A DNA stretch of 41,666 nt, taken from positions 1-41,666 of IMG/VR virus record IMGVR_UViG_2526164631_000048, one strand, 5' to 3'. Made by a program: the position numbers and the translations under genes. The DNA comes from a virus (lineage: Duplodnaviria > Heunggongvirae > Uroviricota > Caudoviricetes). Shown here piece after piece: positions 1 to 1,290 of this stretch; positions within the stretch are counted from its first letter, which is position 1, and each line of letters opens with the position of its first letter. Below the pieces are notes generated by a model. It was not told the origin of the DNA, did no database searches, and saw only the letters and a program-made list of their open reading frames with translations.

Positions 1-540
1 ATGAATCCGTTTAACGCCATTACTTTTGCTGCATTGTGCGGGCCTCTGGTTTGTCCTGCTGCTATGGCGCAGGAGTTCATCATCCAGCCAGCCCCTGTGA
101 TTGCTAAACCTTTTGAGTACTCTCCCTCTGTTGAGGAATTCTCACGCAAAATGGAAGAGGGTAAGGAGATCTTGCAAAAGTTAACAATTGCAGCAGATGA
201 CTACTATATCTGTTTGATTGATCTTAATAGCCAAGATGCTCGCGAGTTTGTTTCCAAAAACGGGACAGATACGACAGAGGCATGCGAAATGTTCCTGCGT
301 GCTTTTGAAGAAGAAGTGAAGCGTACAATTGAATCGCCTCTGCCTGAATTTATCAGGTCAGAACTGAAGGTTTACTGGCGTCATATTGCTAAAGCTCGCT
401 CATCTGTCACTCGCCTTAACAATTACATAAAGAGCATATTTAAAGAAACTGTTACTTTTAGCGGGCGCGCGGATCTTGCTGGAATTGCAGCACTAGCTAG
501 TCACACATCAAATAAGCTAAAATCGATGCAATTTCACTAA
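1..540 (+). CDS. Hypothetical protein with N-terminal hydrophobic segment; upstream partner of YafO-like toxin (possibly N-terminally truncated by window edge)
   Basis: ORF open from base 1; 16 bp gap to downstream toxin gene; AT-rich; no family recognised. Confidence 0.4.
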   Translation: MNPFNAITFAALCGPLVCPAAMAQEFIIQPAPVIAKPFEYSPSVEEFSRKMEEGKEILQKLTIAADDYYICLIDLNSQDAREFVSKNGTDTTEACEMFLRAFEEEVKRTIESPLPEFIRSELKVYWRHIAKARSSVTRLNNYIKSIFKETVTFSGRADLAGIAALASHTSNKLKSMQFH

Positions 541-556
541 CCGATAGCGGACGACC

Positions 557-991
557 ATGCATCTAGAAGTCTCTATTAATCCAGAAACTAGAGCTGAATT
601 TTTTGATGAAGTTTTTCTCAAATTCCCAGAGCTAGAGTCTTCTATCATTGATGATTTCAAGAGATACAAAGCAACCGGTGAGCTTCCGCATTATTTCGGT
701 AGGGACGTTGCGTATACTCAGCCTTATGGTGCTTTTCGGGCTGGGTTGATGCATATCCATCTTTGTCTACCGCCAAACAAGTTTCCCGAGAAACTTCCAC
801 AACCGGATAGGGTCTGCAAGAAAGGTGATCCTGATAATGATGCTTGTCTTGTGTATGTCCAAGGTGAGCTTTATGAGAATAAATATTCACTCATTGCTAT
901 TATGTATCCCGATGCACATGAAAAAGCAAGAAAACATGATGTGATGAGCTATCTGGCGCGAATTGCCCAGAATTATAAAGATGAAAACTAA
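557..991 (+). CDS. YafO-family toxin-like protein (ribosome-dependent mRNA interferase family)
   Basis: 144 aa; motifs FGRD..Y, HIHL, LVY.QG, LIAI..P..H.KAR align with my recollection of E. coli YafO; followed by terminator. Confidence 0.5.
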   Translation: MHLEVSINPETRAEFFDEVFLKFPELESSIIDDFKRYKATGELPHYFGRDVAYTQPYGAFRAGLMHIHLCLPPNKFPEKLPQPDRVCKKGDPDNDACLVYVQGELYENKYSLIAIMYPDAHEKARKHDVMSYLARIAQNYKDEN

Positions 992-1012
992 CCCGCCGAA
1001 GCGGGTTTTTTG
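992..1012 (+). terminator. Rho-independent terminator (cccgc-cgaa-gcggg + T6), probably bidirectional
   Basis: GC hairpin 992..1005 followed by TTTTTT; lies between convergent genes. Confidence 0.6.
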
Positions 1013-1017
1013 TGAGA

Positions 1018-1290
1018 TTAGTTATTTATTTTCCTATTTGTTCTTACCCTCTCCCATTCAATTCTGCCTTCTTCACGCCGTTTATCTATATATTCAGCAA
1101 GATCCTGAATGTTGATGCAGCGCTTTGCTTTCTGTGATGTACCAACACGATAAGTCGGGATCGGCAACTGGCATGCATTTGCTTTCGCTTCTGCTGTGTT
1201 AGGGCTCATACCGAAATACTTTTGGCATACAGCTGACAGCTCAATGTTTGGGGTATTGAATTCAGCCATCAGTAAAAACAAGGTGTTCAT
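1018..1290 (-). CDS. PrtN-family (pyocin activator-like) regulatory protein
   Basis: N-terminus MNTLFLLMAEF resembles PrtN MNTLFLLMAQY; GGAG RBS before ATG at 1290; ORF track start 1317 is GTG. Confidence 0.5.
   Translation of the reverse strand: MNTLFLLMAEFNTPNIELSAVCQKYFGMSPNTAEAKANACQLPIPTYRVGTSQKAKRCINIQDLAEYIDKRREEGRIEWERVRTNRKINN

Follow-up and report, generated by a model that had tools for sequence, protein, structure and literature searches.

What stands beside a toxin of the YafO family when the gene ahead of it is not yafN? The question is raised by the beginning of IMG/VR virus record IMGVR_UViG_2526164631_000048 (Caudoviricetes), analyzed here over its positions 1 to 41,666 and called the window below. 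A reading of the letters alone (the sequence-only reading) had described two open reading frames (ORFs) separated by a 16-nucleotide (nt) gap: the second for a 144-amino acid (aa) protein with signature blocks of YafO, and the first for a 179-aa protein in the place where canonical yafO has a YafN antitoxin of ~95 aa. Both ORFs are as described (Table 1), and in Escherichia coli K-12 yafO does follow a 97-aa yafN. E. coli YafO cleaves mRNA and arrests translation; to our knowledge it belongs to the least studied of the RelE-type toxins, its pairing with YafN being the only one characterized. The toxin found here is of a known family; its partner, tied strictly to it, has not been described before. 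The reading toward which we lean, with modest confidence, is that the cassette is a toxin-antitoxin-like module, in which a YafO-family RNase is restrained by a new antitoxin family built on a helical core, and which serves as an accessory cassette stabilizing the prophage or aborting competing infections.

The toxin is considered first. A profile match outside the YafO family had been named as grounds for giving up the assignment; the 144-aa protein falls inside it, since its match to Pfam YafO_toxin (PF13957) scores 76.5 bits (E 1.9e-21), where 25 is the cutoff, and spans profile positions 1–100 of 101. It is 36% identical to K-12 YafO over 117 aa (E 2e-19), and all of the blocks named in the sequence-only reading are present and align with those of the K-12 protein: FGRD (residues 47–50), HIHL (66–69), LVYVQG (98–103, LVYxQG in common) and LIAIMYPDAHEKAR (112–125, with PxxHxxAR in common). 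RefSeq annotates it as a “type II toxin-antitoxin system YafO family toxin.” Its score against the NCBIfam equivalog model NF007377 is 75.8 bits, below the cutoff of 153. By these comparisons it is a member of the YafO family, and not an equivalog- or ortholog-level match to YafO itself. Because the signature residues are invariant across its clade (F47, G48, H66, I67, H68, D95, Y100, and H121 in 28 homologs), the protein is suggested to be still an active enzyme.

Structure prediction, which had been proposed for both proteins, gave for the toxin an AlphaFold2 (AF2) model with a predicted local distance difference test (pLDDT) score of 95.6, based on the 28 homologs. In a Foldseek comparison with PDB, eight of the 13 top matches to this model are HigB2, YoeB, YafQ, or RelE toxins; the best is HigB2 (8a0x; E 4e-3, probability 0.99), with template modeling (TM) scores for the matches of only 0.4–0.5. 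The modeled fold resembles the RelE/BECR type; no solved YafO structure was found. Its nearest relatives in fold, weak as the matches are, belong to the HigB2-HigA2, YoeB-YefM, and YafQ-DinJ modules of the RelE/ParE superfamily (BECR fold), whose toxins are expected to cut mRNA while it is being translated (PMC11980606).

The 179-aa partner had been called non-canonical and without a recognizable antitoxin fold, and this is borne out. It shows no similarity to YafN by BLASTP (E 1.7), has only chance-level matches in Pfam (Phd/YefM included) and NCBIfam, and a PDB sequence search with its family profile returned nothing below E 0.09. Its AF2 model (pLDDT 80) has a helix at residues 6–24, a disordered stretch at 25–43, a helical bundle at 44–146, and a further helix at 159–175, and no match to it was found in the fold comparison. 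Where K-12 has a 97-aa antitoxin of the Phd/YefM type, the window has an all-helical protein of 179 aa with a hydrophobic N-terminus; the order of the genes, partner then toxin with a short gap, is the same in both.

The partner does have relatives. It matches a single phage family without assigned function, phrog_8416 (E 5e-86), as the toxin matches another, phrog_1651 (E 1.8e-47, likewise without an assigned function), and by these matches and the Pfam one both ORFs are real genes rather than chance reading frames. The partner family is small, with 22 clusters in a word-indexed search, 23 in a profile search of 1.84 billion representatives, and 50 in a broader profile search. All of them are unnamed or “hypothetical,” and all named sources are gamma-proteobacteria. 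Full-length homologs are 171–200 aa long; positions conserved family-wide (E96, R100, E103, R133, N140, and L165) lie in the helical core, and most members end in FH. By homology, then, the partner is a member of a small, previously undescribed protein family. Two GenBank records from 2025, for phages PhiR40_1 and PhiR55_1 of ECOR strains, label it “YafM antitoxin” (PV340560.1, 222–761; PV340571.1, 206–742); no homology behind this label was found, nor any paper on these phages, nor any description of the partner, in the literature searched.

Its association with the toxin is what distinguishes it. An IMG/VR search with the toxin retrieved 80 loci, 67 of them with enough upstream DNA for the neighboring gene to be seen; in every one of the 67, a same-strand ORF of 171–200 aa ends 2–35 nt ahead of the toxin gene, and all distinct ORFs among these match the partner hidden Markov model (HMM). 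Of 5426 E. coli genomes, 49 have the partner and the same 49 the toxin, each gene in 50 records and at 51 places; among the matches listed, the two genes are always adjacent, both intact, and at least 99% identical. Starting from the partner instead, a toxin gene is next door in all four genomes found with its profile (Phytobacter, Enterobacter, and two Pantoea), and a YafO-like gene also lies directly downstream of it in Photorhabdus prophages, phage HK639, and Pseudomonas phages YMC11/02/R656 and vB_PaeS-D14L. At every partner locus whose neighborhood was examined, a member of this YafO clade follows immediately. The pair thus consists of two small co-directional genes inherited together.

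Little else about the surroundings is constant. The cassette is found at the att/xis region in E. coli, in tail-gene clusters in HK639 and the Photorhabdus prophages, and at the repressor or the genome end in Pseudomonas phages, and no neighbor is conserved besides the partner and the toxin. Because the flanks differ in this way, the pair is regarded as a mobile unit; because nothing else accompanies it, the partner is the only candidate for a protein inhibitor. The cassette has no counterpart in most relatives of each carrier phage. It was seen only on phages, prophages, and phage-plasmids; a search for the partner on ordinary plasmids gave no match.

The two genes evolve at different rates. 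Identities of partner and toxin, in that order, are 74/75, 65/81, 57/76, 54/69, 17/51, 31/44, and 21/49% for the pairs compared; the partner of Candidatus Pantoea multigeneris, for example, is 54% identical against 69% for the toxin, and those of the distant phages 17–31% against 44–51%. The partner is, by these figures, the faster-diverging of the two, and antitoxins usually do diverge faster than their toxins. Two eroded copies were also seen: in Photorhabdus antumapuensis (locus L097, 98–1098) the partner is intact and the toxin lacks its N-terminus, and in Enterobacter hormaechei (L096, 2356–3384) both genes are fragmented beside an IS1 element. An intact toxin with a broken partner was not found among the loci examined. 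Linkage, divergence, and erosion together make, circumstantially, the pattern expected of a toxin with a cognate neutralizer.

Under the toxin-antitoxin reading, the YafO-like protein would cleave mRNA and arrest translation as E. coli YafO does, and the 179-aa protein would neutralize it as its cognate antitoxin, standing in for YafN. The helical core (residues about 44–175, with E96, R100, E103, R133, N140, and the C-terminal FH) is probably the part common to all relatives. The phage could benefit through stabilization of the prophage, abortion of infection by competing phages, or both. The new-antitoxin module suggested by the sequence-only reading thus stands as far as a conserved, co-traveling pair with a non-YafN partner is concerned; the antitoxin function itself is probable, and a role in defense against phages possible.

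The chief difficulty for this reading is the N-terminus of the partner. In the window protein, residues 1–23 are MNPFNAITFAALCGPLVCPAAMA, followed by QE: an uncharged hydrophobic stretch with Pro at −5 and Ala-x-Ala ahead of Gln24. No other part of the enterobacterial partners is as strongly conserved. Codons 1–32 carry many synonymous and few non-synonymous changes, and codons 44–93 the reverse; because of this richness in synonymous changes the constraint is considered to act on the peptide, and a cause at the DNA level was rejected. The stretch was surveyed in 46 representative partners below 80% identity. All 46 have an uncharged hydrophobic stretch at the N-terminus, and in nearly all partners its core is 11–16 residues long. 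Ahead of the stretch the net charge is neutral or positive in 45 of the 46 (up to +6); over the 15 residues that follow, it is negative or neutral in 41. Within the enterobacterial group Ala −1 and Pro −5 are invariant, and −3 is occupied by Ala or by some other small or aliphatic residue. The mean hydrophobicity of the window segment is 0.63 with a low hydrophobic moment, within the range of the known E. coli signal peptides compared, MalE included; a reading as an amphipathic helix is not supported, given the low moment. A weaker segment (AAIGLLMQQ), with a mean hydrophobicity of about 0.49, is found in the HK639-type subgroup. Judged by simple heuristics, the features of a Sec signal (n-region, h-region, small residues at −3 and −1) are present in the window partner and most of the 46 representatives, and the N-terminus looks like a cleavable Sec signal peptide.

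Several points weigh against the toxin-antitoxin reading. Read as a signal, its N-terminus predicts that the helical domain would be exported, away from a cytoplasmic toxin, which sits uneasily with the classical picture of an antitoxin sequestering its toxin in the cytoplasm. The antitoxins of RelE/ParE modules carry helix-turn-helix (HTH), ribbon-helix-helix (RHH), or Phd DNA-binding domains; in the partner neither a DNA-binding domain (HTH, RHH, AbrB, Phd) nor any known antitoxin domain or fold was found. Among the defense profiles of PADLOC-DB v2 the toxin has no match and the partner only a chance-level one (E 0.017). Finally, co-occurrence as such shows a functional linkage, in the genomes compared, and not neutralization.

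The alternative that survives best takes the N-terminus at face value: the partner would be exported or located in the envelope, its N-terminus serving either as a cleaved Sec signal peptide or as a signal anchor, and the pair would be a sensor-effector or exclusion module in which the envelope protein possibly senses incoming phage or the status of export, and the cytoplasmic RNase is restrained in some other way. The hydrophobic stretch in all representatives and the charges flanking it imply an N-in/C-out topology, the invariant Ala and Pro and the signal-like, non-amphipathic hydrophobicity agree with it, and so does the want of any antitoxin-like domain in a protein of 179 aa; a lipoprotein gene is immediately upstream of the HK639 cassette, and phage morons often encode envelope proteins. 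We nevertheless think it unlikely, if worth keeping in view. The hydrophobic core is weak in the HK639-type partners; the first 32 residues are the most constrained part of the enterobacterial proteins, more than is usual where a segment is a signal peptide and nothing else; nothing that looks like a transmembrane link to the cytoplasmic toxin is seen; and the core is associated with YafO even where the hydrophobic stretch is absent.

This last point comes from a sister cassette next to the integrase of SSU5-type phage-plasmids, found in 317 plasmids of Klebsiella, Enterobacter, Citrobacter, and E. coli (e.g., pKPHS1 and pJN2-26). The upstream protein is a distant homolog of the helical core of the partner (29.7 bits, E 3e-11 in a single comparison), and a 31%-identical YafO-like protein is encoded downstream of it. 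The N-terminus of the upstream protein, MHLENCLEDMNVISNALATVTSNASRF, is polar, highly conserved, and preceded by acidic residues, with a mean hydrophobicity of 0.30. Because the YafO linkage persists there without a hydrophobic N-terminus, the helical core can presumably act in the cytoplasm in the phage-plasmid lineage.

The two ideas could also be combined, in a form we regard as speculative and rather improbable: the partner would be an antitoxin that is cleared from the cytoplasm by Sec-dependent export instead of proteolysis, the precursor neutralizing the RNase and continuous secretion keeping it short-lived. Halted synthesis or disturbed export, as by phage-induced shut-off or membrane depolarization, would then change the level of free toxin. 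There is a precedent for an antitoxin of the RelE superfamily tied to the protein-export chaperone machinery: in toxin-antitoxin-chaperone (TAC) systems, a SecB-like chaperone controls a HigA-type antitoxin through a chaperone-addiction segment, and the group (PF_gp49, HigBAC) has a role in abortive infection (PMC11980606). The analogy, an inferred one, is partial, since TAC systems have a C-terminal addiction tail and a chaperone gene, whereas the window cassette has no chaperone gene and its hydrophobic segment is N-terminal and apparently signal-like.

The genomic setting bears on a further alternative. Bases 1–1500 of the window match the chromosome of E. coli O111:H2 strain 12A at 100% identity, and 48 of the 5426 complete E. 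coli genomes have this segment in full. On one side of the cassette in strain 12A is the attachment site, a displaced 5′ fragment of dusA 105 nt long; on the other is the PrtN-family gene, the opening gene of the early-left operon of a lambdoid prophage, with the integrase and intact dusA at the opposite end of the window; the sequence-only reading was right to place it at the far end of a prophage. It also took the upstream ORF to be possibly cut by the window edge, and here it was mistaken: in the identical chromosome the ORF is complete, and base 1 of the window is the annotated ATG of WP_001067897.1, with GAGG 6 nt before it; ~200 nt of non-coding DNA separate this ATG from the dusA fragment. 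A promoter-like TTGACC-17-TAGACT lies 54–82 nt upstream of the partner ATG, outside the window. Because of this start, ribosome site, non-coding upstream DNA, and promoter-like site, and an orientation opposite to the adjacent early-left phage genes, the partner ORF is considered complete and the unit stand-alone: the cassette is a self-contained two-gene operon, or “moron,” carried by a lambdoid E. coli prophage integrated at dusA, at the end where the attachment site lies.

Table 1. Features of the cassette and its surroundings. Coordinates are those of the window except for the sister cassette, which is given by locus.
Feature	Position	Strand	Description
Partner gene	1..540	+	Complete, 179 aa, ATG start; WP_001067897.1; phrog_8416; putative neutralizer (antitoxin)
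Signal-peptide-like segment	1..69	+	Partner codons 1–23, MNPFNAITFAALCGPLVCPAAMA then QE
Intergenic spacer	541..556	+	16 nt; weak ribosome site GCGGA at 547–551 ahead of the toxin ATG
YafO-family toxin gene	557..991	+	144 aa, ATG start; WP_000549966.1; phrog_1651; putative RelE-fold mRNA endonuclease
Intrinsic terminator	990..1013		Hairpin 990..1007 plus T-run on + strand
PrtN-family (excisionase-like) gene	1018..1290	−	Convergent with the cassette
Sister cassette in phage-plasmids	L014 874–1911; also L098, L099		201–205-aa protein, 9 nt, 136-aa YafO-like gene

The terminator expected at the end of the pair is there, with the stem AACCCGC-CGAA-GCGGGTT (−11.6 kcal/mol; z = −2.9 against shuffled sequences). 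The hairpin scans as terminator-like on both strands and is 10 nt from the stop codon of the convergent PrtN-family gene; it may end the transcripts of both. The description of the region as AT-rich cargo holds in moderation: the cassette has 42.9% GC where the remainder of the window has 50.7%, which puts it at the 7th percentile of 1012-nt windows.

The further alternative is that the cassette serves the lytic or lysogenic program of the phage itself, and not addiction or defense, for example as a regulated host-shutoff RNase with its modulator. Both genes do belong to phage protein families, they lie inside tail-gene operons in HK639 and the Photorhabdus prophages, and the restriction of the cassette to phages, prophages, and phage-plasmids would suit such a role. 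In E. coli, however, the cassette is outside the phage operons, opposite to the early-left genes, and has its own promoter-like site and terminator; its variable position, its absence from most relatives, and a GC content below that of the phage backbone follow the pattern of an accessory moron. We consider a part in the phage program improbable. An ordinary yafNO-type locus, or a 3′ remnant of a larger unrelated gene upstream of the toxin, is excluded: the RefSeq label on the toxin and the “YafM antitoxin” label on the partner point to the former, against which stand the want of YafN similarity or a Phd/YefM match, a toxin score below the equivalog cutoff, and the missing dinB/yafP context and LexA box, and the latter is rejected on the ribosome site, the 200 nt of non-coding DNA upstream, and the full-length homologs of 171–200 aa.

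The LexA box matters because K-12 yafNO is part of an SOS-controlled dinB-yafN-yafO-yafP operon, whereas the window cassette is phage-borne and stand-alone. No LexA box was found within 2.4 kb upstream of the cassette, the only matches being at lexA and elsewhere in the locus, and SOS control through such a box was rejected. A possible regulatory element is a palindrome 30–43 nt upstream of window base 1 (L001 7958–7971), downstream of the promoter-like −10 and ahead of the ribosome site. It recurs at the same position in other enterobacterial homologs (L007–L010, L044, L051, L053, and L056), its symmetry kept while its sequence varies: AATAGC-TAAG-GCTATT in E. coli, CTATAGC-TGTC-GCTATAG, and GATAAC-ACAA-GTTATC in the Pantoea type. 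Individual copies are not significant against shuffled sequences, and nothing clearly equivalent is present in other subgroups; the element may be an operator or else a hairpin in the 5′ untranslated region. An RNA antitoxin was also looked for, and neither relevant tandem repeats nor any Rfam family was found in or around the cassette; an antitoxin of type I or III is accordingly not supported, though a small RNA of a new kind could have escaped these searches.

Some further observations concern the ends of the element. A perfect 10-nt direct repeat, two copies of TCTATTCATA, is found 108–127 nt upstream of window base 1 (L001 7874–7893), between the dusA fragment and the cassette promoter, and might be part of the attachment region. 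At the other end, coordinate mapping to the identical chromosome suggests that the window from ~38.5 to 41.7 kb (L095 2838–5437) extends beyond the prophage into host DNA; the mapped segment would hold the integrase, pspG, and intact dusA, to which the phage supplies the 5′ end. Next to the integrase is a DinI-like gene.

How the records are cut affects how the pair is seen. The window starts exactly at the partner ATG, as do many other IMG/VR prophage records (L015–L043, L052, and L064), and 13 of the 80 IMG/VR loci start at the toxin gene, splitting the pair; in records beginning at either point the promoter of the cassette is lost and the toxin can look like an orphan. It has been listed as one: surveys of Pseudomonas aeruginosa prophages report YafO toxins as “orphan,” without a partner (PMC10449497, PMC12066637). 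These are the same cassette. The toxins of vB_PaeS-D14L and YMC11/02/R656 are 47–51% identical to that of the window, and in each a homologous gene for a 167–180-aa partner lies 8 nt upstream. A recent review gives PF_YafO as a small BECR-fold family of about 1000 entries in antitoxin-toxin order and does not discuss the antitoxin partners (PMC11980606); in the text of a Photorhabdus toxin-antitoxin survey, YafO is named solely as a search class (PMC13617665). Because surveys score the toxin as an orphan and viral records may begin at it, the pair has been systematically missed.

These comparisons show that a sizeable phage-borne branch of YafO pairs with a different, unnamed partner. The cassette ranges over E. 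coli, Pantoea, Serratia, and Photorhabdus and over prophages of Pseudomonas, with its sister form in hundreds of Klebsiella phage-plasmids. If the partner is truly exported, an intracellular RNase toxin would be linked to the cell envelope, for which no precedent has been described; if export controls the toxin, a toxin-antitoxin module would here be coupled to the secretion machinery, a form of control of which no case is described among type II systems. If the partner is the antitoxin, it would represent a new antitoxin family, and the pair would be a compact candidate for a module by which prophages abort infections or enforce addiction.

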